The translations under genes were made by a program, and so were the position numbers. Shown piece after piece: positions 11,839 through 56,721 of a stretch of 64,000 nucleotides of DNA (positions are counted from its first letter, which is position 1; each line of letters opens with the position of its first letter). The DNA lies in contig JAIQGI010000014.1 in the NCBI GenBank assembly GCA_020072565.1, forward strand, positions 16,327 through 80,326, given 5' to 3'. The notes beneath the pieces were generated by a model, which was not told the DNA's origin, did not search any database, and worked only from the letters and a program-made list of their open reading frames with translations. This stretch comes from Terriglobia bacterium. Lineage in GTDB: Bacteria; Acidobacteriota; UBA6911.

Positions 11839-12084
11839 TCAGGAACCGGAATTCATTTCCCTTCGATATCGCTGAACGATGGAGTACATCTGATCCTTCA
11901 GCAGCAGTTTCTTCTTCTTGAGCCTGATTTCCTGAATTCTCTCTTCATCACTCAGGTGGTGACGGTGGCTTAACAATGCCAGTTGCTCGTCGTAGGACTG
12001 GTGCTCAGCGGCAAGCTTCTTGAATTCCTCGTCCCTCGCAAGCAACTGTTGACGGAGTTCTGCCTCACCAATCGGAACGTTCAT
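11839..12084 (-). CDS. DUF465/YdcH-family small protein
   Basis: The product is a coiled small protein (LLARDEEFKKLAAEHQSYDEQLALLSHRHHLSDEERIQEIRLKKKKLLLKDQMY). The start is taken at the internal ATG. Confidence 0.5.
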   Translation of the reverse strand: MNVPIGEAELRQQLLARDEEFKKLAAEHQSYDEQLALLSHRHHLSDEERIQEIRLKKKKLLLKDQMYSIVQRYRREMNSGS

Positions 12085-12262
12085 ATCGGTTCCCCTCCTT
12101 TCGTCTCTCTGAAAATTCGTCAGGTTCATAAGATCATAAGCTCCAAAGGTCAATCCCGAAGTGAATCAAACCGCCAGGCGCCGACACGCTCAAAATCACT
12201 CTTGCCCCGGCGTCCTGGCACCACATCCAACATTCAAAATTGCAGTCGGCCATAGGATGATG

Positions 12263-25358: not shown

Positions 25359-25398
25359 TTGGAGCGGGAGACGGGGAACGATCCCGCGACGTCCAGCT
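25359..25398. repeat. attL-like partial copy of the tRNA-Gly 3' half (island boundary)
   Basis: ttggagcgggagacggggaAcgaTcccgcgacgtccagct matches 45942-45981 at 38 of 40 positions. That span runs from the tRNA-Gly CCA through the T-arm and variable loop to the 3' anticodon stem. Confidence 0.6.
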
Positions 25399-34288: not shown

Positions 34289-34303
34289 ACACACTGCGAC
34301 GCC

Positions 34304-39700: not shown

Positions 39701-40954
39701 TCAAGAGCTGTCAGCGGCATATTCCATCCTATTTAGCACGGACCGGATCTGTGCGGCGGTCAGACGTTCGATGATGCACATGGTCCCGTGACAGCGAGGG
39801 CACTTGGCAACCTGCGGTTCATCGGGTTCGGCCGTTGGCGCCGGGTGATGGAGTAAGGTTCGGCAAATCGGCAGCAGTTCTCCGCACCGGCGATTGGCAA
39901 GCCAGCCAAAATAGCGAATGCGTGGCAGCCCCTTCGGTAGCACATGCTGCAGGAAGCGGCGCAAAAACTTCTCGTGGGTGAGTGTCTTGGTGCGTTGCAC
40001 GCCGTTATGGGCGTAATCCTTCCATTGAAAGGTCACATGGGACTCATCAACGGAGGCGATTCGATGGTTGGATATGGCAACACGATGGGTGTAGCGAGCC
40101 AGATACTGAAGCACGTGCTCGGGGCCGCCGAAGGGCGGCTTGGAGTAGACGACCCAGTCCTGTTCCGACAGAGGTTTCAAAAACGCGGCAAACGCTTCCC
40201 CATTGGCTAACGGCTCGCACTTTCCGTAAAAGGACAGTTTGTCTGCCAGATGCGCCTGCCTCAGTCCATCCACAAACTTGTCGCGAAAGGTACGGCTGAG
40301 AACCTTGACCGGCACGAAGTAACGGGGATGCGACGAGATCCAGCGGCTGTGATCCGGGGACAGACCGCCACCGGGCACCACGCAATGAATGTGCGGATGC
40401 CTCTGTAGAGTCTGCCCCCAGGTATGCAAAATGCAGAGAAAGCCGATTTCCATACCTCGACGCTTATGATCGGAAGCCACTTCCAGGAGAGTAGCCGCGG
40501 TAGCCTGGAAGAAAAGCGAAAGCAGGAGTTTCTTGTTTTGCCAGATCAACGGGACCAGGCGGTGCGGGATGCTGAAAACGATGTCGTAGTACCCGACGGG
40601 CAGCAACTCTTGTTGCCGTTTGCGGAGCCACTTCTCGCGTGCATTGACTTGACACTTCGGGCAGTGGCGATTGCGACAGGAAAAGAACGAGATAGCCTGA
40701 TACCCGCAACTGGCACATCGATCACGATGCCCACCAAGAGCGGCGGTGCGGCAGCTCACGATGGCATGGAGCACCTTGAGCTGTCCCCACAGCTCAGCGT
40801 CTCCCCGAGGCGCTCCCACAGTTTGCTGCCCGCCATGCGAATGACATCGGCCACCTCCCAGAGGGGCCGAGCCATTAGTGATTGTCCTCCGGTGGGTAGT
40901 GCAGTTCGGAATGGCTGCGAAGCGTGATCTGCTCAAGAGGATTGATAACCGCAC
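39701..40954 (-). CDS. IS91-family transposase (copy B); N-terminus possibly frameshifted
   Basis: The HUH and Tyr motifs are conserved ([21 protein letters not shown]; [14 protein letters not shown]). Hand translation shows the expected N-terminus [25 protein letters not shown] in a different frame starting at 40875, so the gene may be a pseudogene or carry a sequencing indel. Confidence 0.5.
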
Positions 40955-41032
40955 GAAGATGACGCTGCGACAGATGCAAATAGATCGCGGTTTCTTTCAG
41001 GCAGGAATGCCCCAGGAGAAGCTGAATGGTTC

Positions 41033-41755
41033 TCAGGTCGGCTCCCGCTTCGCAAAGGTGTGTCTCAGCGTGTGCGGACCGATGGTCTTAGTCAAGCCCG
41101 CGCGTTTTGCCGCACCACGAACGGCGTGCCAGACGGTTTTGTCCGACATCGGCTTCTCAACACCGAGACGTCCTGCGGTGCTGGGGAACAGATAGATCTT
41201 CGGCCGCTTCGAACGATAGTACTCACGCAGCGCATCGAGAAGTTTGGGAGACATCGGCAGAGCGCGATCGCGTGAACCTTTGCCCTGCCGGATATGGATG
41301 ATCATGCGCTGACTGTCAATGTCAGCCAGTTTGACAAGCGGAGCCTCGGCCCGTCGTAAACCCGTCGAGTACAAAAGCATCAAAATGGTGCGGTATTTGA
41401 GATTCGGCGCAGCTTCGATCAATCGCGTCACCTCTTCATGACTCAGCACCACCGGCAGCTTTTTAGGAACCTTGGGGAAAGGCAAATCGTCCATGTCAAG
41501 ATCGCGACGCCTGAGGGTCTTCTTGTATAGGAAACGCAATGCCGAGAGTCTTATTTTAACCGTGCTCGGCTCAAGCTTCTTCTCCTTGAGCAGGTAGAGT
41601 TGAAACCGGCGCACCTCTTCGGTGCCGAGTTTATCCGGGGACTTGTCGAAATAATCGGCAAACTGCTTGACGGCCAGAATGTATCCACGAAACGTTTCAG
41701 GTGAGTAATTGCGGCGCTGGAGCTCGTCCAGCATTCTCTGACGTAATGGGGTCAT
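41033..41755 (-). pseudogene. tyrosine recombinase of IS91-family copy B, C-terminally truncated by frameshift
   Basis: The ORF stops after HTLRHTFA. The continuation [31 protein letters not shown]... (catalytic Tyr region) is readable in another frame between 40955 and 41032. Confidence 0.45.
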
Positions 41756-45898: not shown

Positions 45899-45942
45899 TG
45901 GACTCTACGAATTCGGGGTGTCTGTAACTCGTTGAAAAGATT

Positions 45943-46017
<75 letters not shown>

Positions 46018-46205
46018 GCGATAACTATTGATATATCTATGCTTTAGCGTTTCATTAAATTTTCGTGCAACAAATGTACAACAGAATATTCCCCTCTGTC
46101 GTTTGGGCTTGTTGTACCGTGTTTGAGTCGCGCTTCAGCATGAGCGTACTTTACTTTTTGTTGCAGATTTTCGCAAGCGGTAATGCCTTCAGGTGGAGAT
46201 CGCCT

Positions 46206-46532
46206 TTATCGAACGATTTTCGAAAAATCTGCATAGTGCTGCCTGATAAACTTCACCATTGATCGCAAGGCCAGATCGGGATGAACCCTGTCAAGGGTAG
46301 GTTGTCTGACGTGATAGGACTGTAATGTACCGTTCTCTTTTATCTGCCACACGAGAACGCTTGATGATTCCTTCCCGGGACGTTTGATTGCTTCCAGCCG
46401 GAACTTCCTGGACCCACCTTTGGCCTCTAGCTGAAACCCGATTGTTCGAACCACCTCGTACGGTTCCGTGATCGCGTCTTCTGTGGACTTGAAGAGTTCT
46501 CCAAGCGTTCGCTCATGCTCTTGTTTTTTCAT
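46206..46532 (-). CDS. hypothetical protein
   Basis: The 108-aa ORF has a good SD (aaggag) 7 nt upstream of its ATG. Confidence 0.45.
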   Translation of the reverse strand: MKKQEHERTLGELFKSTEDAITEPYEVVRTIGFQLEAKGGSRKFRLEAIKRPGKESSSVLVWQIKENGTLQSYHVRQPTLDRVHPDLALRSMVKFIRQHYADFSKIVR

Positions 46533-46725
46533 GCCCTGCTCCTTTGAGGTCCGATGGGGTCTGATTCTATCACAATGCAGCCTTCGCCCTCGAAAACTCT
46601 GCTCTGTAGAGGCTCAGGTTGAACGATCGCCCTTCGAGCGGGCAGCGATGTATGACCGAAATCCGCGTCCCCAGCGCTGCTCACGTCGGGGGCCAGGTTG
46701 CCTAATGTGGCGTTTGCCGCATCCG

Positions 46726-46771
46726 TTCCAGCGGGCCCAGTCACCGAAGACTGAGCCCGCTGGAATTTTTT
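46726..46771 (+). terminator. strong plus-strand Rho-independent terminator inside the minus-strand element
   Basis: The stem ttccagcgggc and gcccgctggaa (11 bp) has an inner pair cagtc/gactg and a 6-nt loop, and is followed by TTTTTT (46766-46771). Confidence 0.55.
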
Positions 46772-47062
46772 GCCGCAGGCCCGGCCGGAGGGGGTGCCTC
46801 ATGACCCTGCGCTTATGCGCAGCCAGGCCCACGGTGCCCGGTGACTGCAGCCGGGCGGTTTGGCTTAAGCGATAGCCGCTGGCGAATCTGTTGCGCCTTC
46901 GGCAATCGCCCGGCGAAACTGAAAAACCATGAGTCCGTCCGGGCGCTTAACGCCTGCGATCAGTTCCCAGCCCAGGGCGCCCAACGGATTGAGGTCTGCC
47001 ATCTCGTCCAAAACCTCGAAACGATATTCCCACTTCATTTCGTGCCTCCTGTTGTTTGACTA

Positions 47063-47623
47063 CTACATTTGGCCAAGAGCCGCCGCAAGGACCCGATCAA
47101 AACGGTAAAACGGCATTGAGACGGATTCCGATTCCTCGAGGCGCTCGATCCACTTGGTGATTGTCAAAATGATTTCAGTTGGATCCTCGCACGCCTCGCA
47201 CTGCCGGAGCACCGCTGCCAGTTCGGTTCTCAATTCCGAGTTCTCCGGGAGTTGAGCACACACGGCGCCAACAACGTTGCCAAAGGAGCCACAAACCGCG
47301 CTCAACGCGCGATGGAGCTTGTCCTTCGTTGCCCGCAGCTGCGGCACAAGATCCGCCGTCAACGCGTCACGACGGGCAATAGCCGCCTCGAGCTCCGCCT
47401 TATGAACCGCGTCGCGTTCGGCCCAAAGTTCTTCACAAACCTGGCGGGAATAACTGCCGTCTTTGGCGAGGCGTAGCGATTCCAGCTGCTCAGCTTCGCG
47501 TTGCGCCTCGTGCCACTTGGGCCGAATCGCAGCAAATTCGCGCTGCAGGTCCGCTCGCACTTTTTGAAGTTCCCTCACCTTGGCAATCCATTTTTTCGCC
47601 TCGTCCTTTTTTGCAAATAGCAT
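47063..47623 (-). CDS. hypothetical coiled-coil protein
   Basis: The 186-aa ORF is highly charged and helical, with no known motif. Confidence 0.4.
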   Translation of the reverse strand: MLFAKKDEAKKWIAKVRELQKVRADLQREFAAIRPKWHEAQREAEQLESLRLAKDGSYSRQVCEELWAERDAVHKAELEAAIARRDALTADLVPQLRATKDKLHRALSAVCGSFGNVVGAVCAQLPENSELRTELAAVLRQCEACEDPTEIILTITKWIERLEESESVSMPFYRFDRVLAAALGQM

Positions 47624-47633
47624 TTCATCTCCT

Positions 47634-47885
47634 TTAGCGGTCTCGATACCGCCGCTGCAACCATTGTTCGTTCATCGCCCGTTGCCGTTCCGCATCTAAC
47701 GTCAGGCCCCGGTGAAATTCGACTTGCGCTTTTGCTGCACGAAAGATTTGCTTAGCCTCATGCGCCTTACGCCAGCGCGCAAACGGTGCCGCATAAAGCC
47801 GGGTGATGCGCAGCCAAAGCGCGCGGACCTGATTTCGAATTTTTCGGCGCAGCCCCCTCAGGCGCATATTCCCCTCCCATACCAC
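47634..47885 (-). CDS. hypothetical small basic protein
   Basis: The 83-aa ORF is Arg-rich. Support is weak. Confidence 0.25.
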   Translation of the reverse strand: MVWEGNMRLRGLRRKIRNQVRALWLRITRLYAAPFARWRKAHEAKQIFRAAKAQVEFHRGLTLDAERQRAMNEQWLQRRYRDR

Positions 47886-48418
47886 TCAACCCATGCTGCC
47901 TCCGGCCAAAACAACCGATCTATTGTTTGCGCCGAAATGACAACACGCCAAGTGGGGCCCGTTTGCGTGCGGCAGAGGCTTTCCAGATGTGCACCGATTC
48001 TCTGAACGCGCGGCCAATTATCACGAATCATTACTCCGGCCCGTGCGAGAATTTCGTCCAGGTCGAGATGAATTCCGACGGTTCCGCAAAGTTGTATCCG
48101 CGACCCCAGATTGACTGCGTCGGTTTGCTCGGGATCGGGATCCATAAAATCCCAGGTGGGAGACACAACCCCGCGCAGGTGGCGATCGGCACAGAGTCTC
48201 ACTTGGATCATCACCGCAGGCAGACCAACGAGTTCAGCCACGACATAGTGTCCAGCCTCGTGAAAACTCACTCCGGCGATCGAATCGGCCTCTGGAGCGG
48301 TTTCGTAAAAAATTTGTTCCGCCCAGGGCCCGCCGCAATCGATGAGCGCGCGGCCTTGCGCTTCCCTGAGAAGTTCCGCTTTTGCATTGGCGAGTTGTGC
48401 CTCTAGGGTTTCCGTCAT
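47858..48418 (-). CDS. putative zinc metallopeptidase (HEAGH motif)
   Basis: The 186-aa product contains SFHEAGHYVVAELVG, a HExxH motif in an FtsH/ImmA-like context. Confidence 0.45.
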   Translation of the reverse strand: MTETLEAQLANAKAELLREAQGRALIDCGGPWAEQIFYETAPEADSIAGVSFHEAGHYVVAELVGLPAVMIQVRLCADRHLRGVVSPTWDFMDPDPEQTDAVNLGSRIQLCGTVGIHLDLDEILARAGVMIRDNWPRVQRIGAHLESLCRTQTGPTWRVVISAQTIDRLFWPEAAWVEWYGRGICA

Positions 48419-48663
48419 GCGTTCACCTGGCTCAGGAAATAGGCGCCAAGCGCGTATACCTTGGCACTGTCTGCAAAAGTTTCGCTGTCCAGCTCTGAGT
48501 TAATCAACCCGACTTCTCTTTTCAAGCGGGTGTACTCCGCTTCGGCATCAGGAGTGAATGCACCCGCCGCGCGAGCGTCGGCCAGCAGCTCATGCGCCCG
48601 ACAAAGTTTTTTCGTTTTTTCCTGCCTCAGTTGTCTCTCTTCAAGCAATAGATTTCGCATTTC
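48415..48663 (-). CDS. hypothetical protein
   Basis: The ORF is trimmed to the internal Met MRNLLLEERQ to avoid overlap with the terminase gene. The product is coiled-coil. Confidence 0.3.
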   Translation of the reverse strand, partial: EMRNLLLEERQLRQEKTKKLCRAHELLADARAAGAFTPDAEAEYTRLKREVGLINSELDSETFADSAKVYALGAYFLSQVNA

Positions 48664-48712
48664 AGTTCCCCTTTCCGAAGTCGAAGTTAGTAAACATGAC
48701 CCCTCCTCATTG

Positions 48713-50656
48713 TCAGCGATTAAGCCAGCCGCCCCGCCCGGGATCGCCGAGCCAGCCCCGTGTTCTCTCGCCCAAAAAGGACTCATTGCGCTCGCGATTT
48801 AACGCCAGGCCGAGCCGTGCTTTTTCATCTGGATCCTGACTTGCGGCGGTCAACTCTTTGGATCTCAAGGCGTCCATCCTGTCCGCGTGCGCGTTCAGCT
48901 TTATCCCGGACATGTGGAGGCTTTGGAGCGCAGCGAAGTTGTAGCACGCAACGTCCAGGACTTCATTTCGTACTCCCGGCGCTTTGAACCACTCCCGGAC
49001 CGCAAAGCCTTTCGAGTATCGGACCCTCACCGTCTCGCTTGTGAGCTGCTCGAAAAAGCTACGATCTGCCGTCATCGGAAAGTGCATAAAGCCCGGACCC
49101 GGATCGAGAATCCTCAAATGGCTTGCGATCCAATCTTTGCAGGGGTCAACGCCCACAATGAACATGGGGCTTTTATCCTTCCCGCGGCCCGCTCTCCGCG
49201 GCCAAACGGGATGACGCCCGGCTTGGCCCTTGATGGCATAGACGCGCCGGCGAAGCCTATCCCGAGTGAACTGATAGACGGCCGCGGTTGCATATCCCGA
49301 GTCAACGCAGCACGCAGAGATCAGGAGTTTCGCGCCGAATTCGTGCGTAAATTCCGAGGTCAGAATCCGGTCAAGGTCTCGCCAAACCTCCGGCCGCATC
49401 GGATCGCCGCGGATGATGTTGTATTGGATCTGCCAGCACTCTTCATCACGCCCCCAGCCAAAAACGCCAACCTCGAGGCGATCCGTTTGGACGTCCACGC
49501 CCGCGGTCAAAAGCGCCACCCCTGCCGGCAGCGTCGCGCCAAATGGCTCCCGTCTCGACAAGAGGAGTTCGACGTCGAGCTTTTCCGAATGTGGTTCCTC
49601 CCAGGATTCCGCCAGGACTGTGTTGATAAAAACTCGGAGACGTTCCGGGCTCTTACTCGCTCTGATGAAATTGGCGGCCAACTTCGGCCAGGTCGTCCAT
49701 GGGGAAGCCAGGGCGTTAATGTGAAACCCAGCCGCCCGGCCTTCCCCCGGTGATTCCGCCCGCCATTCCCCGCGCTCCAGCATAGCCGGCTTGTGTCGGT
49801 CCTCGATTTTGCCGTTGCACAACTCACATTTGTAAAAGGCCTCTGCCGGCTTCCCTTGCGGCCATTCAACGCCGCTCCATTTCAGCGTCTGAAATCCCTG
49901 GCAATGCGGACATGGAACCCAATATTGGCGTTTGTCGCTTTCCTTGTACGCGGCCTCGATCCGGGACACGCCCTTTACCGTTGGAGTGGAGATCATGCAG
50001 ATTTTGCGATTGGCAAACGTCTCGCTGCGTGCGATTGCCAAATCACAAGGGTCGCCCTCAGCTACCGATCCGCCTTCAGCGCCGGCCGCGCCCATCGCGC
50101 TCGCGGGGTAGGCGTCCACTTCGTCAAGGATGATGTAACGCGCCGGCATGCTGCGAAGCCCTGCCGCGCTGTTTGCTCCGCAAAACGCAGCATATCCGCC
50201 AGGAAACGATTTTGTCTGAATGGTATTGTCAGCGGCGCGCGTCTCGGTCCTGCAGATGCGGTCTCGGAGCTCGGGCGTAGTTTGGATCAGTGATGTAACG
50301 CGCTGCTTTGAAAAACGTGCGGCCAATTCGACCGTGGGCTGGACCAGAAGCGCTGGGCCAGGTGCAAGGTGAATGACGAGCCCCAGCAGGTTTAGAAGCG
50401 CCTCAGATCCGCCGATCTGTGAAGGCTTAACGAACACGGTTCGCTCGCTACCACCATTCGGGCTCATGCTGTCCATTACTTCGCGCATGAACGGGACTCT
50501 GGAAGTCCGCCATTTGCCGGGCTCGCCGGCCGAAGTGTGGCTCAGGATTCGATAGCGATCCGCCCATTCAGAAACCGTCAACAGCGGTTCCGGCCGGATT
50601 GCGCGGGCCACAATTCCCCGGATTTCATTTGCCTTCGAGAGCGTCGGCGAGTCCAT
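48713..50656 (-). CDS. phage terminase large subunit, GpA family
   Basis: The 647-aa product has an N-terminal ATPase (TVFVKPSQIGGSEALLNLLG; Walker B ARYIILDEVDAYP) and a Cys cluster (CPHCQGFQ...CELCNG) typical of lambda-GpA-like terminases. A C-terminal nuclease-like region follows. Confidence 0.7.
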   Translation of the reverse strand: MDSPTLSKANEIRGIVARAIRPEPLLTVSEWADRYRILSHTSAGEPGKWRTSRVPFMREVMDSMSPNGGSERTVFVKPSQIGGSEALLNLLGLVIHLAPGPALLVQPTVELAARFSKQRVTSLIQTTPELRDRICRTETRAADNTIQTKSFPGGYAAFCGANSAAGLRSMPARYIILDEVDAYPASAMGAAGAEGGSVAEGDPCDLAIARSETFANRKICMISTPTVKGVSRIEAAYKESDKRQYWVPCPHCQGFQTLKWSGVEWPQGKPAEAFYKCELCNGKIEDRHKPAMLERGEWRAESPGEGRAAGFHINALASPWTTWPKLAANFIRASKSPERLRVFINTVLAESWEEPHSEKLDVELLLSRREPFGATLPAGVALLTAGVDVQTDRLEVGVFGWGRDEECWQIQYNIIRGDPMRPEVWRDLDRILTSEFTHEFGAKLLISACCVDSGYATAAVYQFTRDRLRRRVYAIKGQAGRHPVWPRRAGRGKDKSPMFIVGVDPCKDWIASHLRILDPGPGFMHFPMTADRSFFEQLTSETVRVRYSKGFAVREWFKAPGVRNEVLDVACYNFAALQSLHMSGIKLNAHADRMDALRSKELTAASQDPDEKARLGLALNRERNESFLGERTRGWLGDPGRGGWLNR

Positions 50657-51101
50657 TTAAGTGTCCGAGAATTTCCGTTGATAAAAGTTGACGCACCTTT
50701 GCCGGATCCGTTTCGATCGCCAGCGGAGCAGACAGCCGCTCTGGAATCGTCAAGAGTCCGTCTTTGTGCTGCGCGAAAATGTTAGTCAGGGTGTTCTTGA
50801 CCGTGGCTTGTTCGATCAGCTCGCTTGCCTTCTGGAGAAACTCCAGCCGGCGAAGTTTGGCAAGGAAGGTTTCCTTCATGAAAACGGCCTCGTTGTAATT
50901 TTTGGGGTCGCACCCTTCTTCAAATCCCTGCTCCATCCGGTCAAGAATGGCATCCGATGCAGCAACGTCGATGCGGCCATTCTTCAAAACGAGGAGTCTT
51001 TTTTGTTTCCACTTGGTGACGGCACTCGGAGTCACGCCGCGGTGCCCCGCGTATTCCTTCGCCGTCTCCATGGTTGGATTTTTAAGCCTTGTCTTTTTCA
51101 T
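50625..51101 (-). CDS. HTH DNA-binding protein, possible terminase small subunit
   Basis: An N-terminal HTH-like segment (KEYAGHRGVTPSAVTKWKQKRLL) is present. The call as a terminase small subunit is a positional inference from the ORF lying directly upstream of, and overlapping, terL. Confidence 0.35.
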   Translation of the reverse strand: MKKTRLKNPTMETAKEYAGHRGVTPSAVTKWKQKRLLVLKNGRIDVAASDAILDRMEQGFEEGCDPKNYNEAVFMKETFLAKLRRLEFLQKASELIEQATVKNTLTNIFAQHKDGLLTIPERLSAPLAIETDPAKVRQLLSTEILGHLNGLADALEGK

Positions 51102-51224
51102 CGAGCCTCACCGGATTTTCCGATTTCCTGGGTTTCGGACCCCTTCGCCTCGGGAAGTTGTGCCACACATTCCACCCGAGGGCGCTTGGCCTCCAGTAGG
51201 ACCCAAGCCTTGCCCCTGCAACAG

Positions 51225-51401
51225 TTAGCGCCTATCATCTTTTCGCCCTTCCTTGGCCACGATGCGCGAGCCAGCCCCGAAGGCCCGCAGCACAAGTTCA
51301 ACGCGATTCTGAAAGCGTTGGCCAGGAGTGCGCCGCACTCTTACTTTCAGCCGGCGGATCCGCGGCTTCTGGTCCTCAAGCAGTGTCGGTTGCGGGTTCA
51401 T
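51225..51401 (-). CDS. small basic hypothetical protein
   Basis: The 58-aa ORF has a GGAGG SD 7 nt upstream of its ATG. It is translationally coupled (ATGA) to the upstream small ORF. Confidence 0.35.
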   Translation of the reverse strand: MNPQPTLLEDQKPRIRRLKVRVRRTPGQRFQNRVELVLRAFGAGSRIVAKEGRKDDRR

Positions 51402-51598
51402 TGCTTGGCCTCCGTGACCACTACCGGCCAGGTCATGCCCCAGGAATGCACGCGGCGCCACAATCGGCCCTCGGGATCGCGGAAGACAACCATCTTCGGA
51501 GTCTCCCATAGGATCTCTGCGACCTCGTGACCATCGATGACATCGGGTCTTTGAGTACCGACTAACACCCGGTTTGCAGCGTCGACGTAGCGCCCCAT
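51398..51598 (-). CDS. small hypothetical protein
   Basis: The 66-aa ORF has a GGAGAAG SD upstream of its ATG. Confidence 0.35.
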   Translation of the reverse strand: MGRYVDAANRVLVGTQRPDVIDGHEVAEILWETPKMVVFRDPEGRLWRRVHSWGMTWPVVVTEAKQ

Positions 51599-51625
51599 GT
51601 GTCACTTCTCCGTGCTTTCTGCGTA

Positions 51626-51704
51626 TCTTTCGTTTCTTTCGTAAGTCCCTGCACTGTCCAATGCAGCTCTGACAGGGGTAGCGCAGTACGAAAGAAACGA
51701 AAGA
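51626..51704. repeat. 18-bp perfect inverted repeat with tandem gaaagaaac iterons and nested hairpin (candidate replication origin)
   Basis: tctttcgtttctttcgta (51626-51643) is the reverse-complement of tacgaaagaaacgaaaga (51687-51704). The right arm contains (gaaagaaac)x2, and the spacer holds a ctgca/tgcag hairpin. The structure lies immediately downstream of the DUF3987 replication gene. Confidence 0.4.
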
Positions 51705-51710
51705 AACGAA

Positions 51711-53102
51711 CTAATCGCGCGTAGCACTATGCCCCCTCGCCCCTACGGCCAACCAGCGGACCACGGGCCGACCGGCAGTCTGTTCCGTCCTCGACACCGC
51801 GCTGCCCGTGTCAGCCAGCATCGTAAGCGCCCGGTCGATTTCGCCGGCGGACTTGTTCCGAGCAAATAACCCGGAGATCTGCGTACGACTCATCCCCTCC
51901 GCGACAGAGCGCAGGGCGCGGAGAATCTCATCCGCCACAGGATCGCCCAACTCTGCGCCGAAGACATATCGCGCGGAGGCCTCGGCATATTCCCACAGGG
52001 CCGCCGCGGCTCGGACGTGCTCACCACGGATAGCCTGCGAGAGATCCAACAAGGCATACAACATCGACAGCCTGAGCACCTGTGCCTCGGCCCGCGATGT
52101 CGCGGCACCCAAGAGCCCAGGGTGCCCTTCGGAAAGATCCGCGTAGATTTCATGCCAGACGGCGCGGCCGTCGTCAGAGCGATGCATCGGGCCGACCGCG
52201 CGGGAATGTTCCACGGCCTGCATCAGCCGCAACTGCAGCGCAGCCAGGTCCCCATCGGGTGTGCCACCATCGGGTAGGATGCGCGCGCGGCGCACGCACA
52301 GCCACAAATGCCGATTTGCGAAGCCATTGCCAAGTTCCGTCCGATCGAGATAGCGGCGCACCTCGTCGCGCGTGATGTGCCCGATGATTGAAATGTGCGC
52401 ATCTGTGGCCCGGAGGGGATTGTTTTTCGTGGCGAGCCGCAGTTGTCCATCGTCCCAGGCCTCGCGGATCCGCGCGGACAGGGTGTTGCCCTCGCGGGCT
52501 ATGACTCGCAGCACGCTGGCATACTCAGGTTCAACGACGAGCAAGCGCTTGTCCGTGACCCCGGGATCCCGGGTAACGGTTTGGTAGTCCGTGACGCGGC
52601 CATGGTCGCGGATCGGCTCCTGCTCCTCGATCGCGTCTCGCACGAGCCATACGAGCCCCTCGCCAGAAGATAGCCCATGGTGGATGTGCTCTCGATCATA
52701 CGCTGCGTCGACCTGAGCGCAGAGCGAGCGCACCCGCCCCCAGGAGGTTCCCTTTCTGCCCTTCGCGGTGGCGCCCACCAGAACCACATACAAATTTGCC
52801 GCGTGACGGTCGCCCTCTACGAGGTAGCAAGGGCCGCGGCCGATCATGGATCCGGCCGCGACGAGCACTTGCGACAGCAGCGCCACAGGATCGGCCTCCG
52901 TGGCTGGCCCGAGGGCGCGAACTATCTCGCCAGCGAGGCCGTGGTATGCTTCAGGCGCCGGCGGTTCCGGCCATTGGGCTACGGATGGCGCCACAGCGTG
53001 CAGTGGTGGGGGCCCAGCGATCGCGGCAAGCTCGTCGCCTACCTCCGGCTCCAGGCTCTTGAGGGGATCACACTGAGGCATCGTCATGCCGCCGCCCTCC
53101 AC
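51711..53102 (-). CDS. DUF3987-like replication protein (phage/plasmid primase C-terminal-associated domain)
   Basis: The 463-aa product has an overall DUF3987 pattern. It lies directly downstream of, and overlaps, the CHC2 zinc-finger ORF. No canonical Walker A motif was seen. Confidence 0.45.
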   Translation of the reverse strand: MEGGGMTMPQCDPLKSLEPEVGDELAAIAGPPPLHAVAPSVAQWPEPPAPEAYHGLAGEIVRALGPATEADPVALLSQVLVAAGSMIGRGPCYLVEGDRHAANLYVVLVGATAKGRKGTSWGRVRSLCAQVDAAYDREHIHHGLSSGEGLVWLVRDAIEEQEPIRDHGRVTDYQTVTRDPGVTDKRLLVVEPEYASVLRVIAREGNTLSARIREAWDDGQLRLATKNNPLRATDAHISIIGHITRDEVRRYLDRTELGNGFANRHLWLCVRRARILPDGGTPDGDLAALQLRLMQAVEHSRAVGPMHRSDDGRAVWHEIYADLSEGHPGLLGAATSRAEAQVLRLSMLYALLDLSQAIRGEHVRAAAALWEYAEASARYVFGAELGDPVADEILRALRSVAEGMSRTQISGLFARNKSAGEIDRALTMLADTGSAVSRTEQTAGRPVVRWLAVGARGHSATRD

Positions 53103-53620
53103 TCACGGTAGGCGTTGATCTGTTGGCTCTCGGTTCCAATGTCAATCTGGTCGAGCAGGTACTCCACCTGGTCGAGACCTCGATATGCCGCAGCCAGCCA
53201 GGTCCAGGCGCGCTCATCCTGCGCATCGCGGTGCAGACGCTGCAGAGCCGCGGCCTCAAGACCGAAGCGCCCGAGATATTCGTCGCGCAGCTCGCGGCCC
53301 AGTTCACGGGCCCAGGTTTGTAGACCTTCCTTGATCGCGCGCCGGCGGAGGATTTCAGGATCCGGCGCCGGCGGCTTTCCGGGTTCAAGGCCGAAATATT
53401 TCAATGCTGATACAAAATCGCATCCGCGAAGTTTTTGAACGAAAGCGATCTTGTCCCCATGTTCGGCACAGGCAAAGCAGTTGAAGCCCTTTTCGTCGTG
53501 GCACGAGAAGCCCGTGCTGGAGTCACAGAATGGACAGGCCCCCCGGCCGCGGCGCAAGGACTTGAGGCCCTCGCCGTGGAAGATCGAATCCCAGGTTGGC
53601 AGGTCGTGTGAGTCGATCAC
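53084..53620 (-). CDS. CHC2-type primase zinc-finger protein
   Basis: CPFCDSSTGFSCHDEKGFNCFACAEHGDKIAFV matches the DnaG/P4-alpha CHC2 zinc-ribbon pattern (CPFH.EKTPSF......HCFGCG.HG..I.F). Confidence 0.55.
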   Translation of the reverse strand: MIDSHDLPTWDSIFHGEGLKSLRRGRGACPFCDSSTGFSCHDEKGFNCFACAEHGDKIAFVQKLRGCDFVSALKYFGLEPGKPPAPDPEILRRRAIKEGLQTWARELGRELRDEYLGRFGLEAAALQRLHRDAQDERAWTWLAAAYRGLDQVEYLLDQIDIGTESQQINAYREWRAAA

Positions 53621-54195
53621 GATCGCCGCTCCGCAAGCCGTTGTTTCAAAATCTCGCAGGCCTCAGTCCATGGGGTTTCATCGGGGAGATCACTGATAAG
53701 CTCTAGTTCCGCAGCCAGCCTTATGTGGCGAAGGCCGTCTTCCACGTTCTTCTGTTGCAGGTGGTCAACCATCGTCTGCCTGGCATGAGCCTGGATCCAT
53801 GAGGGCAACGGGACCGCAACGAAGCCAGGCTCGGGAACGTAGCTGCCTTCAGGCAGCGCCAGGGTTGTGACGTCCACATAATCTTTGACCCTGTTCCAAT
53901 CGGCTCGGACTTTTTCCAGAGGGATGAGCTCGGGATGCCAGGAGATCACATTGCCGATAGCCCAGCGGGTGCGATGGGCATTGCAGACAAACCAATCTTC
54001 GTAGTACCTTTCATCGCGATCAACCTGGAACACGATCCCATCAGTGCCCGCACACCACGGGCAACCGCCGAAATAATCGGCCTTTTCTGGAATTGGAGGT
54101 TTTTCTTGCGATTCAGAATCGGTTTTTGTAGAATTCATTTGTCCATCCTTTAGGTTTTGGCCCGGTTCGCGCCGGGCCGTTTTATTTTCGGACAT
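53617..54195 (-). CDS. hypothetical protein
   Basis: The 192-aa ORF has a Cys pair (GGCPWCAG) and no assignable family. Confidence 0.4.
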   Translation of the reverse strand: MSENKTARREPGQNLKDGQMNSTKTDSESQEKPPIPEKADYFGGCPWCAGTDGIVFQVDRDERYYEDWFVCNAHRTRWAIGNVISWHPELIPLEKVRADWNRVKDYVDVTTLALPEGSYVPEPGFVAVPLPSWIQAHARQTMVDHLQQKNVEDGLRHIRLAAELELISDLPDETPWTEACEILKQRLAERRS

Positions 54196-54199
54196 GCCA

Positions 54200-54532
54200 C
54201 TACGCTCGCGCCGCGGCCGATTCAGCTTCCCACTGCGGCCGGATCCGGTTTCGCCTCAGGTACTCGTCCAGGTCTGCCTTGTCGAAATAGATTTTTTTGC
54301 CAGCGGGTTTGAAGTGTGCGATGAGGTTCTTTGACGTCAGCTGGTACAGATGGCTTTTGCTGATTTCCAGGTACTTTGCCGCGGACTCCAGATCGAACGG
54401 GCCCGCGTTCTCCGCACCAGTCCGCAGTGCCAAGCTGATGATGCGATCCAGCTTTGCTTCGATCCGGGTTATTTGCTTTTCCGTCATACTCGCGCGCCTC
54501 CTGTTAGCAAGCGCAAGTATTTCAAACATCAA
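54200..54532 (-). CDS. excisionase-family HTH DNA-binding protein
   Basis: LESAAKYLEISKSHLYQLTSKNLIAHFKPAGKKIYFDKADLDEYL fits the excisionase/AlpA-type HTH signature. Confidence 0.5.
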   Translation of the reverse strand: MMFEILALANRRRASMTEKQITRIEAKLDRIISLALRTGAENAGPFDLESAAKYLEISKSHLYQLTSKNLIAHFKPAGKKIYFDKADLDEYLRRNRIRPQWEAESAAARA

Positions 54533-54563
54533 AAAGGATAGGTATCTGAAATATAGGGCAGGC

Positions 54564-55262
54564 TTATTTCGTAGGTCGGATCAGTCTCTCCTGCAGTTTT
54601 GTTGCCGCTCTCATCCAGTCATTGGCGGGCGTACCCGAATTGTAGGCCATCTTTTTAGGTTCGAGTACGAGCAGAATTTCATCATTTTTTGCGCCAACCG
54701 CTTTTGCGTCCAGCGTGCGGAGATACTTGGCCCAATCCGGAACATGGGGTTTATCCTTGTTTTGGCCGACTTGTTTTAATCCAATCTTGAGAATTTCGAT
54801 ATGCGCCTCAAGGCTTGCGTTTGGGTCCAGCGCAAGTGCCATGGGAGCGAACACGTAATCCCCAGCCTCAATTAGATGGACCGACCAGAATCCCAGATTG
54901 CGCGGCCGCGCCACGGCCGGATTGATGAGCACTGGCATGCGATATTTTTTGACCGAGTGTTTCATGTAAACAACGAATTCCTCGCTCCCGGGATCACAAT
55001 CAAAATTTCCTGGCTCTATTGGTCCTGGTGATTCCAGGTCGGAATTTGGATTGGGTGACATCCATTCTTGGTACGTGTGTTTGCTGTACCATTCAACCGT
55101 CCTTTTGTGTTCTCGCTCCCAGTCCTGGCGGTAATCGTCACACCGGCGAAGAAATTCCCAACGCCAGAGTTCGTCCGGCAGGCTTGCCGGGTATGCCTTG
55201 CTGTTGCGCCAGTCCGGGATTCCCCAGCGACGCCGATATTGCAGATCAGTCTTTTTTGACAT
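54564..55262 (-). CDS. hypothetical protein (integrase-adjacent accessory gene)
   Basis: The 232-aa ORF is Trp-rich at its N-terminus (WRWEFLRRCDDYRQDW). Its 3' end overlaps the integrase 5' end. Confidence 0.4.
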   Translation of the reverse strand: MSKKTDLQYRRRWGIPDWRNSKAYPASLPDELWRWEFLRRCDDYRQDWEREHKRTVEWYSKHTYQEWMSPNPNSDLESPGPIEPGNFDCDPGSEEFVVYMKHSVKKYRMPVLINPAVARPRNLGFWSVHLIEAGDYVFAPMALALDPNASLEAHIEILKIGLKQVGQNKDKPHVPDWAKYLRTLDAKAVGAKNDEILLVLEPKKMAYNSGTPANDWMRAATKLQERLIRPTK

Positions 55263-56355
55263 TGGATTTTCGCTTTCCGTCGCTCAAGTTCGGTATAAGG
55301 TCAACTGCCTGTCTCTTTTTCGCGTCAACGATCTTCGCGTAAATCTCGGTTGTGCTTAGGTCCCGATGGCCCAGCAGCTTCGACATGGTGTAAATGTCCA
55401 TGCCATAGGTGAGCCCCATGGTTGCGAACGAGTGCCGCGCGGTGTGGAATGAAACGCGTTTTGCGATCCCCGCGCGCTTTACCCAGCGCTTGATTGCCTT
55501 GTCGATGCTTTGCTGCGCCGGCAGTTTGAATACCGCGTCCGGGTTTGCTTCGCCGGTGATGTTGGGCGAGTACTCCTGGCCTTTCTGCGCTCCGAGGATC
55601 TTCCCTGCCTGCCTGGATAGTGGCAACTGTTCCGGTGAGCCAGTCTTGACCATGATGAAGTCAATCGAGTAGTGCGGCCCGGCCTTGTGCACCTTGTCCC
55701 ATGTCAGGGCTCGCACATCGGAATAGCGCAGTCCGCAGAAACCGGAAAACAGGAAGGCGTCCTTGACGGCCTGGTTGCCACACTCGGTCCGCTCCAACAG
55801 TTGCAATTCCTTCAGTGTGAGAAACTCGCGCCGGTTTTCCTGCTTTTTGATCCCGATACCATCGCCGGGGTTGCGGGTCAGGATCTTGTCGTGGACGGCC
55901 TGATGCAGCGCCGTCTGGATCCGGGCCAGGTACACCCCCGCGGAGTTCTGTTTCAGTCGTGAAAGAAGGTAGTCGCGGAATGAGCGGACGTATTCCTCGG
56001 TGAGCCGGTCAAAAGAAAGAGACCCGTCCGCGAAGGCCTCCAGGTGCTGGATAGCGTTTTGCCATACCAGCTGGGTATTAGGGGCCCGCTTCGTTTCTGC
56101 GATCGTCCTGCAGTAGGCCAGGAAATCATCCTGTTGCCGCGTTGGCGAGGGGAATCCGTGCTCCCCTTGCACATGCTCGAGCCGGCGCTTTGCGAGGATG
56201 TCCCCGGCCAGCTCGCGGGTCCGCTTGTCCTGCTTTGGGTTTCCGGTGAGGTAAAGATTGAGATACTCCAGTTGCCGGCGGCCGCGGTCGTAAAAGTCCA
56301 GGTATAAGGTCCGGGTGCCGGCCGCCGTCTTGCGTTCTCGAAGGCTGATCTTCAC
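55246..56355 (-). CDS. tyrosine site-specific integrase
   Basis: The 369-aa product has N-terminal arm-binding, SAM-like and catalytic domains, with motifs LRYSDVRALTW and HTARHSFATMGLTYGMDIYTMSKLLGHRDLSTTEIYAKI. Confidence 0.8.
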   Translation of the reverse strand: MKISLRERKTAAGTRTLYLDFYDRGRRQLEYLNLYLTGNPKQDKRTRELAGDILAKRRLEHVQGEHGFPSPTRQQDDFLAYCRTIAETKRAPNTQLVWQNAIQHLEAFADGSLSFDRLTEEYVRSFRDYLLSRLKQNSAGVYLARIQTALHQAVHDKILTRNPGDGIGIKKQENRREFLTLKELQLLERTECGNQAVKDAFLFSGFCGLRYSDVRALTWDKVHKAGPHYSIDFIMVKTGSPEQLPLSRQAGKILGAQKGQEYSPNITGEANPDAVFKLPAQQSIDKAIKRWVKRAGIAKRVSFHTARHSFATMGLTYGMDIYTMSKLLGHRDLSTTEIYAKIVDAKKRQAVDLIPNLSDGKRKSNVKKD

Positions 56356-56553
56356 GATTCACCTCGATGGCGAATAACAACCGCCTTTGTATGTAATTCA
56401 CCTTAGAGAATATCACGCGTACAACAACTGTACAACAAAAATAAACAAGAACCGGCAAAAATCAGGTAAACATCCAAAAACAGGAAGGCCGTAAACACTG
56501 GCGGTTGTTACTGTTAATTGTTTATGGTTTTTCTTACTTGGGGCTGGAAAATA

Positions 56554-56574
56554 CTACCGCTGAATTACTCCCGC
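56554..56574. repeat. direct repeat of tRNA-Gly 5' end (att site of the satellite-like element)
   Basis: ctaccgctgaattactcccgc is identical to 45997-46017, the first 21 nt of tRNA-Gly (acceptor plus D-arm). An imperfect extension, gctgg...ctaccgc, also matches the 5' anticodon stem. Confidence 0.55.
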
Positions 56575-56721
56575 TCACTTCAAAGGTCTGCGTCATACTA
56601 GCGAATCGGACTTCACCAAGTCAATGGGCTCCAGAGCGCGTGCTGCCGATATCTCGTCGCGCTTCCGGTGCGTTGAACCATCCAAGACGCCCGCGCCTGC
56701 AAGGTCCGGTACGGGATTCTG

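Follow-up and report, generated by a model that had tools for sequence, protein, structure and literature searches.

The locus studied here raises two questions: how a mobile element came to lie upstream of a tRNA gene, at the 5' end, and what lifestyle can be expected of an element that encodes both terminase subunits and no capsid genes. We address them in a 64,000-nt stretch of DNA (the window) from an uncultured Acidobacteriota host, in which the element occupies positions 46017-56553 (10.5 kb) and has a 21-nt direct repeat at both ends. The overall explanation that we favor, with moderate confidence, is an element that integrates in the D-arm of a tRNA gene and is a PICI-like satellite with its own terminase. 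Its ends are marked by two features:

45942-46016, minus strand: intact tRNA-Gly(CCC) gene (ARAGORN; Rfam tRNA, 65.5 bits); nucleotides 1-21 (45996-46016) are the att core at the int-distal end of the element
56551-56574, minus strand: displaced native 5' fragment of tRNA-Gly, the int-proximal att core (nucleotides 1-21 perfect; 23/24)

The repeat copies (45996-46016 and 56554-56574) are identical at 21/21 positions, or at 23/24 if begun at 45993 and 56551, and run from the 5' acceptor strand through the 5' D-stem strand and the D loop to the first 3' D-stem base of tRNA-Gly(CCC) (nucleotides 1-21). The perfect copy of the tRNA 5' end reported from a sequence-only reading of this DNA is therefore real, as is its observation that the duplicated end is opposite to that of classical tRNA integrators. 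The copied piece is, however, the 5' quarter (20-24 nt) and not the 5' half of the tRNA, and the imperfect extension into the anticodon stem, for a total of about 30 nt, was not upheld, as related elements share only nucleotides 1-20. The shortness of the repeat is all that speaks for a chance match with the true element ends elsewhere, which we consider extremely improbable: none of the dinucleotide shuffles of the window contained two copies, the block is conserved in 12 loci, and arm-type repeats lie beside both core copies. The shuffles and the conservation in related loci together rule out chance as the origin of the repeat.

Comparison of related loci shows integration at the 5' end of tRNA-Gly. 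Nucleotides 1-20 of the tRNA are found upstream of int in 12 fetched related loci (L016-L023, L096-L098, and L100), which amount to about ten distinct elements, given that L016 and L017 are near-identical and L096-L098 carry one integrase. Among the loci listed in the integrase tables, integrases are 44-86% identical to that of the window; L096-L098 share one 71%-identical integrase. The tRNA block, in the same orientation, precedes int by 159-329 nt (distances taken from L016-L023). The full geometry, with other cargo, is present in a complete Acidobacteriota chromosome (L020; fragment at 9738, int at 10001, and intact tRNA-Gly(ccc) at 20151), and the same pyrG-kdsA-kpsF-tRNA site is occupied in another species (L096). 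The sequence-only reading had held that absence of the repeat from orthologous elements would make it fortuitous; it is kept in every fetched relative whose integrase shows 44% identity or more, apart from one. This exception, the close relative L099 (integrase 74% identical), occupies a non-tRNA site with a 12-nt repeat, and the tRNA-Gly target of the integrase clade is therefore not absolute.

In all loci, the shared block runs from exactly tRNA +1 to nucleotides 20-24, the 3' border of the D loop, beyond which the related att sites carry an A-rich element motif (CAAG.AAGAAAAACCA) and not decayed tRNA. Because identity always stops at this border, we place the crossover in the D-arm rather than the anticodon loop. 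Strand exchange most probably takes place in the 7-nt D loop (AGCGGTA), which has the D-stem inverted repeat ATTC/GAAT on its two sides; a loop with such stem symmetry mirrors the classical anticodon-loop and T-loop sites. The sequence-only reading had instead proposed that this element and the island on the other side of the tRNA both crossed over in the anticodon loop, and in the window alone the sequence after the repeat (CCAGC..CCCAAG) does resemble an anticodon stem-loop, as if the int-proximal copy were what decay had left of a 5' half some 30-40 nt long. For the present element we judge this very unlikely: nucleotides 1-20 form an invariant block across 10 att sites, the sequence past the block is unrelated to tRNA and contains the element-specific A-rich motif, and random decay would not leave 21 perfect bases beside 18 scrambled ones. 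An anticodon-loop crossover fits only the left-hand island, a separate classical island of 20.5 kb (25399-45941) on the 3' side of tRNA-Gly, with its far boundary at:

25360-25398, minus strand: 3' fragment of the same tRNA-Gly, from the CCA end to the anticodon stem, with two T-loop mismatches

No empty attB, excised circle, or virion-derived copy was found; all examined contigs with identical terL (24/24) hold the integrated state, as do all those examined for kpsF (23/23, no empty site).

We propose that the tyrosine integrase recombines an attP core corresponding to tRNA-Gly(CCC) nucleotides 1-20/21 with the chromosomal tRNA gene. As the insertion falls upstream of the gene, the element must rebuild the tRNA 5' end, and it would do so by donating nucleotides 1-20 together with a promoter-like block 130-160 nt upstream. 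The native promoter and native first 21 nucleotides would thereby be shifted 10.5 kb away, beside int, and arm-type repeats (TTGTTGTAC) on either side of the core would complete a lambda-style attP. The sites concerned are:

46065-46117: P-arm arm-type repeats, predicted to bind integrase, with a tandem pair on the minus strand (46084-46076, CTGTTGTAC; 46073-46065, TTGTTGCAC)
46109-46117: inverted P-arm arm-type repeat, TTGTTGTAC
46146-46177, minus strand: promoter-like block directed toward the tRNA (CTTGCGAAAATCTGCAACAAAAAGTAAAGTAC, TTGCGA-17-TAAAGT), with the -10 hexamer ending 132 nt upstream of tRNA +1
56419-56438, minus strand: tandem P'-arm arm-type repeats (TTGTTGTAC twice, 11-nt phasing)
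56595-56624, minus strand: native sigma-70-like tRNA promoter (TTGACT-18-TAGTAT), ending 20 nt before the fragment and now facing the element

All three exact copies of TTGTTGTAC and two one-mismatch copies are found no farther than about 135 nt from the two cores, and the L020 element has the same kind of arm-type motif at both ends. The native promoter recurs at the same distance from the fragment in L096 and L100, and in 5 of 10 loci native promoter-like hexamers stop 17-22 nt short of the fragment. A tRNA promoter within the element, upstream of position 46017, had been suggested as worth seeking, and block 46146-46177 is a candidate: it agrees at 30/32 positions with the intergenic and apparently native sequence that precedes the displaced tRNA fragment of L020, although it matches the consensus at only 8/12 positions, under the threshold of the consensus scan, which missed it. 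The L020 upstream block could alternatively be an old element remnant. At the matching position, the element of L020 itself has TTGAAA-17-TAAATT (9/12 promoter match). The first 20 bases of the tRNA gene are replaced by the element, as, apparently, is the promoter.

The listed protein genes of the element are all on the minus strand. From the int-proximal end, its contents are:

55246-56355, minus strand: tyrosine integrase (Arm-DNA-bind_5, SAM_5, and Phage_integrase domains)
54564-55262, minus strand: orf232, whose frame overlaps the int end; L100 has a 59%-identical counterpart
54200-54532, minus strand: HTH_17 (AlpA/excisionase-type) protein, co-inherited with the integrase in nearly all relatives
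53617-54195, minus strand: orf192 (173 aa in the gene calls)
53084-53620, minus strand: CHC2 (DnaG-type) zinc-ribbon protein
51711-53102, minus strand: DUF3987 protein, a P4-alpha/VapE-like helicase-type replication protein
51611-51727: ori-like structure, a 33-nt inverted repeat of 9-nt iterons (ACGAAAGAA), starting immediately beyond the DUF3987 gene on its 3' side and sharing the last 17 nt of that gene
51225-51598, minus strand: two small ORFs (58 and 66 aa); orf66 is conserved beside the replication genes in L099, L116, and L117
50625-51101, minus strand: terS, small terminase subunit (phrog_57, E = 6e-25; 76% identical to L102 terS)
48713-50656, minus strand: terL, GpA-type large terminase (ATPase domain complete, E = 7e-86; nuclease domain complete, E = 5e-91)
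48415-48786, minus strand: small ORF after terL (81 aa in the gene calls)
47858-48418, minus strand: FtsH-type (M41) zinc peptidase domain that stands alone; invariant motif HE[AS]GH
47634-47885, minus strand: orf83 (77 aa in the gene calls)
47063-47623, minus strand: orf186b, predicted long helical hairpin (coiled coil; AF2 pLDDT 68, all helices)
46865-47038, minus strand: orf57, small protein with a sub-threshold Sp36-family match
46206-46532, minus strand: orf108, no family matches

The integrase, excisionase-like HTH protein, CHC2 and DUF3987 proteins, iteron/inverted-repeat block, terS, and GpA-type terL had all been recognized from the letters alone, and domain matches bear out each assignment; likewise, the HExxH protease noted there is the M41-type domain. 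TerL matches phrog_15 (E = 7e-239) and shares 75% identity with its counterpart in a lambda-like phage contig (L102) with the order terS-terL-portal-protease/MCP-decoration-tail, which clearly points to derivation of the terminase module from a lambda-like phage head module. After terL, the remaining 2.5 kb contain ORFs of 57-186 aa only, six orphans or near-orphans, and no portal, capsid, or tail gene would fit in the element. As the sequence-only reading had stated, such genes are missing from the 10.5 kb: none of the other ORFs matched a capsid, portal, or tail protein in Pfam, PHROGs, NCBIfam, or PADLOC, and lysis genes are absent as well. The M41-type ORF has three remote homologues among 1.84 billion representatives, aligns with M41-like proteins of L116 (which matches Pfam Peptidase_M41) and L100, and yields a profile match to the FtsH protease domain (PDB 2dhr, E = 3e-5); this peptidase is a conserved accessory. 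By tblastn, orf57 matched sequence directly behind terL in phage contigs L101/L102 (E about 1e-7), but this was not reproduced against the annotated ORF there. For orf186b, a fold search returned no significant match, and a role as scaffold or capsid-size factor is speculation.

Related elements show variations on this arrangement. L115/L116, with a different integrase and at tRNA-Asp, have CHC2-DUF3987-orf66-terS-terL followed by accessory ORFs including an M41 peptidase, without portal, and L103 has an accessory gene in place of the portal after terS-terL. On the same int-xis-CHC2-DUF3987 backbone, L099 carries only a Terminase_4 terS, a typical PICI layout. In L117 (terL 73% identical), a protease/MCP fusion directly follows terL with no portal between, and some members of the terminase lineage therefore keep capsid genes. 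Between portal-less elements, terL dN is 0.21-0.26 at saturated dS, which indicates purifying selection.

The best reading of these data is that of a PICI-like phage satellite with its own terminase. Excision would depend on Int and the HTH_17 protein, and replication from the iteron origin on the CHC2 protein and DUF3987. Its TerS-TerL holoenzyme would recognize the packaging site of the element and load the DNA into procapsids, which a lambda-like helper would supply because the element lacks portal, capsid, tail, and lysis genes. A cos-type GpA terminase would package the 10.5-kb genome as head-full multimers, cosmid-like, or alternatively into small capsids if some uncharacterized ORF redirects assembly. 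We identified no helper in the same genome and located no packaging site in the element.

A decaying prophage remnant, which lost everything from the portal onward and keeps an immobile or merely excisable set of int, replication, and terS/terL genes with no helper-dependent transfer, is unlikely. In its favor, the terminase module matches a real phage head module in gene order and at 75% identity, L117 represents an intermediate state, and no excised or encapsidated copy was seen. Against this, every ORF and all modules are intact and both att cores perfect, the reduced layout with the M41 peptidase is seen again beside another integrase and at another tRNA, and purifying selection acts on terL among elements without a portal. 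Moreover, same-backbone relatives are typical satellites of about 10 kb with terS only, and 10.5 kb is within the 7-20 kb quoted for phage satellites (PMC13376191). The element could nonetheless be one step in a decay series, given the capsid gene of L117. The sequence-only reading had offered a new satellite type or a highly reduced prophage; its satellite-like character stands, but the phage-derived terminase, recurrent layout, and purifying selection mean that the two are not exclusive. Less probable still is a non-satellite integrative island that uses the terminase otherwise, for example to block phage packaging in defense or to nick and mobilize DNA. Targeting of terminase complexes by satellites and prophages is known, and the accessory genes include a protease. 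However, PADLOC gave no matches, and both subunits have their full length, with neither the ATPase nor the nuclease domain truncated, keep the phage gene order, and adjoin the replication module, an arrangement that self-packaging requires and that exceeds the needs of interference.

Among known systems, the satellite proposed here resembles classical PICIs, including the Gram-negative AlpA-type, which are likewise about 10 kb, lack capsid, tail, and lysis genes, and share the order of int, AlpA/HTH_17-type regulator, primase-helicase-type replication genes with iteron origin, and packaging module. Compared by genes alone, the element differs in adding a complete GpA-type terL to terS, whereas its relative L099 has terS only, as in PICIs. 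TerL is a hallmark of cfPICIs and absent from classical PICIs (PMC10085698; PMC13612085). The element and cfPICIs have phage-derived terS and terL of their own in common, but cfPICIs encode major capsid, protease, portal, and head-tail connector, none of which the element has; L117 may be nearer to the cfPICI state. With lambda cosmids and P4, it shares a small replicon, a cos-type terminase, and, as proposed, helper-made heads. Lambda terminase packages small cosmids as multimers. P4 and cosmids use the terminase of the helper, whereas the element brings its own, and we found no homologues of P4 sid, psu, or delta in it.

Classical tRNA integrases (Williams classes: anticodon loop, T loop, and 3' end) resemble that of the element in being tyrosine integrases with a gene-restoring tRNA fragment as core, a likely crossover in a 7-nt loop flanked by stem symmetry, and int at the junction on the tRNA 5' side, transcribed in the direction of the tRNA. 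Unlike theirs, the element copies the 5' end, lies upstream, has int beside the fragment and not the intact gene, and must supply transcription signals too. D-loop integration on the upstream side of a tRNA is rare, yet it has a precedent: Klebsiella pneumoniae arg2A-VII islands (integrase clade I.d) lie upstream of tRNA-Arg, with a proposed D-loop sublocation and an att repeat made up of the 5' acceptor strand plus the D stem and loop; their integrases have the N- and C-terminal domains of most group I integrases there (bioRxiv 10.1101/2020.11.02.365908). The element differs from these islands in phylum and tRNA, and adds evidence for its own promoter and arm sites and for a clade that keeps the site across about ten elements. 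The proposed terminase-bearing, portal-less satellite at a tRNA 5' end is a variant of kinds already known.

We found that nt 1-21 of the tRNA-Gly(CCC) gene (45996-46016) are duplicated exactly at 56554-56574, at the integrase-proximal end of the 10.5-kb element (46017-56553) that lies upstream of the gene. The match is 23/24 when started from 45993/56551, and none of the dinucleotide-preserving shuffles of the window contained two copies of the 21-mer.

Features of the window: tRNA-Gly and the insertions beside it
45942-46016, minus strand: tRNA-Gly(CCC) (ARAGORN; Rfam, 65.5 bits)
46065-46117: putative arm-type repeats on the tRNA side, two tandem and one inverted
56419-56438: putative arm-type repeats on the integrase side, two tandem
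25360-25398: tRNA-Gly 3' fragment, 39 nt spanning the CCA end through the anticodon stem, with two T-loop mismatches
33341-35509 (plus) and 39701-41755 (minus): IS91-type units, a XerC-like tyrosine recombinase (315 or 240 aa) beside a Y2/IS91 transposase

As expected of a tRNA-integrating island, part of the target gene serves as the att repeat and integration restores the gene. Integrative elements reportedly duplicate the 3' part of the tRNA gene, a rule associated with Williams in 2002, and the corresponding classes I-III cross over in the anticodon loop, in the T loop or at the 3' end. The present repeat of nt 1-21, with a family block of nt 1-20, falls outside these classes and matches the arrangement of upstream/D-loop integrators, which sit 5' of the tDNA and whose repeat is made up of the 5' acceptor strand, D stem and D loop. 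Aligning ten integrase-proximal sites with two intact tRNAs yielded a single invariant block that begins at tRNA +1 and ends at nt 20 (nt 21-24 in individual loci); beyond it, the sequence is not tRNA-like and an element-specific A-rich motif is present. The D loop comprises 7 nt (AGCGGTA; nt 14-20) bordered by the D-stem inverted repeat ATTC/GAAT, and the shared block stops at its 3' border. Because of this border, the anticodon-loop crossover that the sequence-only reading had proposed for the element has to be abandoned, and from the point where identity stops we infer that crossover probably took place in the D loop. This site has the same loop-plus-symmetry design as the classical anticodon-loop and T-loop sites. 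In sequence terms, these comparisons demonstrate a site-specific integrative element and its boundaries, with a core equal to tRNA-Gly nt 1-20/21. The attP junction is predicted as ...ATAGTTATCGCT/GCGGGAGTAATTCAGCGGTAG/TATTTTCCAGCC and the attB junction as ...CCTTTGAAGTGA/GCGGGAGTAATTCAGCGGTAG/AATGCCAGCTTCC.

The anticodon loop had been suggested for both insertions at this gene, and it stands for the other one, a classical 20.5-kb island (25399-45941) on the tRNA 3' side whose boundary is the 3' fragment reaching to the anticodon stem, but not for the D-arm element. The fragment implies that one tRNA-Gly gene is flanked by two independent elements, the left island having probably entered via the anticodon loop, in the usual way, and the 10.5-kb element via the D-arm from upstream. 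The left island, which looks degenerate and has no P4-type integrase beside the tRNA, encodes TPR regulators, a UvrD/SEC-C protein of 1396 aa and two transposase/recombinase pairs, each IS91-type with XerC-like. These IS91-type units are oppositely oriented and lie between paralogous Trans_reg_C+TPR regulators.

The 5' fragment is a conserved feature of the integrase's closest relatives. We took the eight closest loci (L016-L023; integrases 44-56% identical) from a species-representative genome collection, and 8/8 carry GCGGGAGTAATTCAGCGGTA, identically oriented, at 159-329 nt before int; the fragment is also present in closer metagenomic relatives (L096-L098, integrase 71%; L100, 83%). The earlier caveat that the 21-nt repeat would be fortuitous if related elements lacked it therefore falls. 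Of the eight loci, two are on contigs with the label Acidimicrobiia, one has the label Chlorobiaceae, and the others belong to Acidobacteriota MAGs. The two loci binned as Acidimicrobiia (Actinomycetota; L016 and L017) share the integrase clade and carry a tRNA-Gly(CCC) 5' fragment identical to that of the Acidobacteriota loci, which suggests either mis-binning or cross-phylum spread. No tRNA 5' fragment was found upstream of int in the more distant Bacteroidota-type relatives (L024-L095, ~32-42% identical), so that the preference for the tRNA 5' site is limited to one subclade; fragment-positive loci number 10/78 in the integrase-relative survey. On a complete Acidobacteriota chromosome (L020), the whole arrangement of the window element is repeated with unrelated cargo, with the fragment at 9738, int at 10001-11095 and the intact tRNA-Gly(ccc) at 20151, giving a 10.4-kb element, while L096, from another species, is inserted at the same pyrG-kdsA-kpsF site. 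The exception is L099 (integrase 74%), which lies between FAD-oxidase and CCG-domain genes, without a tRNA, and is flanked by a 12-nt repeat ATATAGTCGTTG (copies at L099 1871-1885 and 11638-11652), an apparent target switch within the integrase clade.

Further repeats mark both ends of the element. The motif TTGTTGTAC has three exact copies in the 64 kb, and all of them, together with two one-mismatch copies, fall within ~135 nt of the cores; a variant (TTGTTGCG..TTGGTGCG) is found at both ends of the L020 element. These repeats are best read as putative arm-type sites for the N-terminal arm-binding domain of the integrase, and their position near both cores confirms the element ends. Upstream of the displaced fragment, a sigma-70-like TTGACT-18-TAGTAT ends 20 nt before tRNA +1. 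The same promoter stands at an identical distance from the fragment in L096 and L100, and another 9/12 match ends 21-22 nt before it in L018 and L023. Since promoters keep similar spacing in relatives, the fragment side represents the native promoter and the native first 20 nt. The comparison shows putative arm repeats at both ends and the native promoter, with the 5' fragment, displaced beside int. Intrinsic terminators (GC hairpin and U tract) lie 60-100 nt past the fragment in three relatives (L016 ~5090-5125, L018 ~9753-9790, L022 ~4815-4845) and would end transcripts of the native tRNA promoter before they reach int. They are clear in these loci but only a weak version occurs in the window element, for which we do not claim an insulating terminator.

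The intact tRNA-Gly now lies behind 10.5 kb of element DNA, and a consensus scan found no promoter at ≥9/12 against the sigma-70 consensus at the element's tRNA-proximal end. Homology to L020 alone revealed a promoter-like block there (46177-46146, CTTGCGAAAATCTGCAACAAAAAGTAAAGTAC; TTGCGA-17-TAAAGT) that is identical at 30/32 positions to the intergenic, apparently native region upstream of the L020 fragment, and in the corresponding place the element of L020 itself shows TTGAAA-17-TAAATT, 141 nt ahead of the L020 tRNA. The simplest reading of this match is that the elements carry a captured tRNA-Gly promoter along with nt 1-20, although the block upstream of the L020 fragment could itself be the remnant of an earlier element. 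Transcription of the tRNA by read-through is also possible, as all genes between the repeat copies are on the minus strand and co-directional with it. We favor the captured promoter, through which the element would supply tRNA-Gly with a promoter after insertion.

Genes of the element, from the integrase towards the tRNA
55246-56355, minus strand: tyrosine integrase (Arm-DNA-bind_5, SAM_5 and catalytic domains)
Listed after the integrase, minus strand: 232-aa protein, no assignment
Minus strand: HTH_17 (AlpA/excisionase-type) protein, by domain assignment
Between the HTH_17 and CHC2 genes, minus strand: 192-aa protein, no assignment
Minus strand: CHC2 zinc-ribbon protein, by domain assignment
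Minus strand: DUF3987 protein, by domain assignment
51611-51727: 33-nt inverted repeat of 9-nt iterons (ACGAAAGAA), starting past the DUF3987 3' end and overlapping its last 17 nt
Between DUF3987 and terS, minus strand: two small ORFs
Minus strand: terS (phrog_57, E 6e-25)
Minus strand: terL, full-length GpA-type (ATPase E 7e-86, nuclease E 5e-91, each profile matched over its full length)
3' of terL, minus strand: six ORFs of 57-186 aa

On its right the element borders ordinary chromosomal genes (kpsF-like SIS+CBS, kdsA and pyrG), and an identical copy of the integrase is annotated in an Acidobacteriia/Terriglobia MAG. Every item of the sequence-only observation, repeat and gene content alike, proved real in ARAGORN/Rfam, the repeat comparison and the domain assignments. 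By the gene calls, the modules for replication and terminase are both intact; the search for domains gave no catalytic primase in the former. The absence of capsid, portal and tail genes, also reported from sequence, was borne out: nine unassigned ORFs had no capsid, portal, connector, tail or defence match in Pfam, PHROGs, NCBIfam or PADLOC, and the 2.5 kb after terL, with no ORF above 186 aa, cannot hold a ~500-aa portal or an HK97-fold capsid protein. The element thereby shows, as far as profiles and ORF sizes tell, an absence of virion genes. For the 186-aa ORF at 47063-47623, the AF2 model is a long helical hairpin (coiled coil, pLDDT 68) with no significant fold match. An assignment of orf57 as a gpW-like head completion protein was dropped, as tblastn matches beside the terL of L101 and L102 were not reproduced against the annotated ORF; its sole family hint is a sub-threshold match to Sp36.

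The HExxH protease noted earlier is likewise upheld. The AF2 model of this ORF (47858-48418) has a pLDDT of 31 and only three remote homologues were found among 1.84 billion representative proteins. It aligns with M41-like proteins of two related elements, with HE[AS]GH invariant and the C-terminal helices conserved, and the profile from this alignment matches the FtsH protease domain (PDB 2dhr, E 3e-5), so that 47858-48418 is a stand-alone FtsH-type peptidase domain. Gene calls differ here between contigs: L001/L002 have a 139-aa ORF on the opposite strand, and L003/L005 and NCBI (LAP85_10520) have the 186-aa peptidase frame, which we favor because of its remote homologues.

When compared with known satellites, the element combines features of several types. 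Like a classical PICI, it has a terminal integrase with flanking att repeats, an AlpA/Stl-type regulator and a pri-rep module with adjacent origin (HTH_17, CHC2, DUF3987 and the iteron/inverted repeat). A classical PICI lacks terL and depends on the large terminase of its helper, whereas this element has a complete GpA terL. Like a cfPICI, it has its own terS and terL, but not the major capsid, protease, portal and head-tail connector genes (Pfam, PHROGs and NCBIfam; post-terL ORFs ≤186 aa). As terL separates PICI from cfPICI (PMC10085698; PMC13612085), the element is not a PICI because terL is present and not a cfPICI because the head module is absent. P4-like satellites carry sid, psu and delta with the alpha primase-helicase; sid, psu and delta had no PHROG or Pfam match in the element, and P4 alpha is resembled only by the helicase-like part of DUF3987. 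Among published satellite families, PICI, P4, PLE and PICMI lack terL and cfPICI have terL with a full head module (PMC10085698; PMC13612085; PMC13376191), and a phage satellite size of 7-20 kb is quoted (PMC13376191). In the literature searched, we found no report of a satellite type with terS and terL only. A defective prophage would show truncated or frameshifted genes, structural remnants and degraded att sites; the ORFs here are full-length and the cores perfect. Elements with both ends visible (window, L020 and L099) span ~10 kb, inside the quoted satellite range, and between the terL-bearing elements compared terL has a dN of 0.21-0.26 with dS saturated and appears to be under purifying selection. 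A helper-dependent satellite family fits better than a single decaying prophage, given the mosaic modules, the intact genes under purifying selection and the ~10-kb size.

The origin of the terminase and the mosaicism are both seen in related elements. Against IMG/VR contigs L101/L102, identity is 76% for terS and 75% for terL. In L102, genes for a portal, a protease/major-head fusion, a decoration protein and a tail protein come after terL and form a lambda-like head module. This identity implies a phage-derived terminase and makes L102-type phages candidate helpers. L115/L116 (terL 68%) carry CHC2-DUF3987-orf66-terS-terL followed by 148-, 291- and 235-aa proteins (the last M41-like), without a portal; their integrase differs (SAM_3) and is positioned classically beside tRNA-Asp. 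In L103 (terL 74%), the gene after terS-terL encodes a homologue of this 291-aa accessory protein, and L100 has the 291-aa and M41 pair with other replication genes and without terL. L099 shares the int-xis-CHC2-DUF3987 backbone with the window and has only a Terminase_4-type terS. L117 (terL 73%; 10001-13664) encodes a P4-type integrase, CHC2, a DUF3987-like protein, terS and terL, with a protease/MCP fusion (phrog_4523) directly 3' of terL and a 76-aa ORF; no portal lies between and the contig ends there. It may be an intermediate between phage and terL-only satellite, and the terminase lineage looks like a reduction series from a lambda-like phage.

The 291-aa protein is an accessory module that moves among otherwise different elements (L116 12419-13998, L100 6879-8456, L103 3974-4797), and in L116 and L100 it comes together with an M41-like HExxH peptidase; L103 has the homologue alone before its contig end. 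The contig end of L116/L115 (14680-14768), just past the terL element, has two copies of a 28-nt repeat, GGCGATTCCACGCGCGCGGGGGCGAAAC, placed 61 nt apart; they look like the start of a CRISPR array belonging to the element or host. L119 (terL 59%), a further candidate for the portal-less group, was not counted; besides several large genes that lack annotation, it encodes a protein of 369 aa with tail-fibre-like repeats. The 4.7-Mb genome of Magnetococcus marinus MC-1 (CP000471.1) encodes at least seven distinct GpA-type terL paralogues. They had been considered as possible terL-only elements, but L118, the paralogue locus that was inspected, proved to be a complete lambda-like prophage, with HigB and HicB/PIN toxin-antitoxin genes within its head and tail modules.

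All evidence comes from uncultured bacteria, mostly Acidobacteriota MAGs. Samples that carry the element include ERZ27247926, SRR15677220 and SRR29366193. Searches for excised or empty forms returned only integrated copies for identical terL, KpsF and PD40 proteins (24, 23 and 23 contigs). Logan contigs that stop inside the tRNA lacked attP and had the integrated junction instead, none of the 6 IMG/VR and 8 JGI loci from terL scans was a circular element copy, and a DUF3987 protein scan of IMG/VR gave no match. The element would work like a PICI with its own terminase. Int and the HTH_17 protein would excise it, CHC2 protein and DUF3987 would replicate it from the iteron origin, and its own terminase would package its DNA into L102-like helper procapsids. 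Lambda terminase packages small cosmids as head-full multimers; the packaged form here would be head-full multimers or remodelled small heads. We propose a satellite type, a natural cosmid, that would have the full TerS/TerL holoenzyme without capsid, portal or tail genes, would occur in uncultured bacteria including Acidobacteriota, and would parasitise lambda-like helpers at DNA packaging only. For the integrase clade, we propose that the tRNA D loop is a third symmetric crossover site and that the promoter problem is solved by the captured tRNA promoter and first 20 nt. Taken together, the two proposals remain tentative, and we put their joint chance a little short of even.

This terminase-only element bridges PICI (terS or none) and cfPICI (whole head), and with L117 and L102 suggests stepwise reduction from a lambda-like phage; phage-satellite biology in such uncultured hosts appears largely uncharted. 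No target is used more often by integrative elements than tRNA genes, and one rationale for duplicating the 3' part is that the host promoter is retained. A clade that uses nt 1-20, apparently with its own tRNA promoter, makes the 3' rule a bias and not a constraint. Islander-type tools search for a displaced piece of a tRNA gene along with the gene itself; they are said to expect a 3' fragment, and if so they would miss 5'-fragment elements. With its mapped arm repeats, the 20-bp core also offers experiments a defined att site. Neither the classical view nor the symmetry hypothesis names any stem-loops but the anticodon and T ones (bioRxiv 10.1101/2020.11.02.365908), and our findings extend that hypothesis to the third stem-loop of the tRNA. 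Klebsiella arg2 islands likewise lie upstream of the tRNA gene with a repeat of 5' acceptor strand, D stem and D loop, termed a novel D-loop sublocation by their authors (bioRxiv 10.1101/2020.11.02.365908). Compared with these islands, the window element belongs to another phylum, uses another tRNA and has an Arm-DNA-bind_5/SAM_5-type integrase. Upstream D-loop integration is thus already described, and what the element adds to the Klebsiella case is clade-wide conservation in ~ten elements, mapped arm sites and evidence for a carried promoter.
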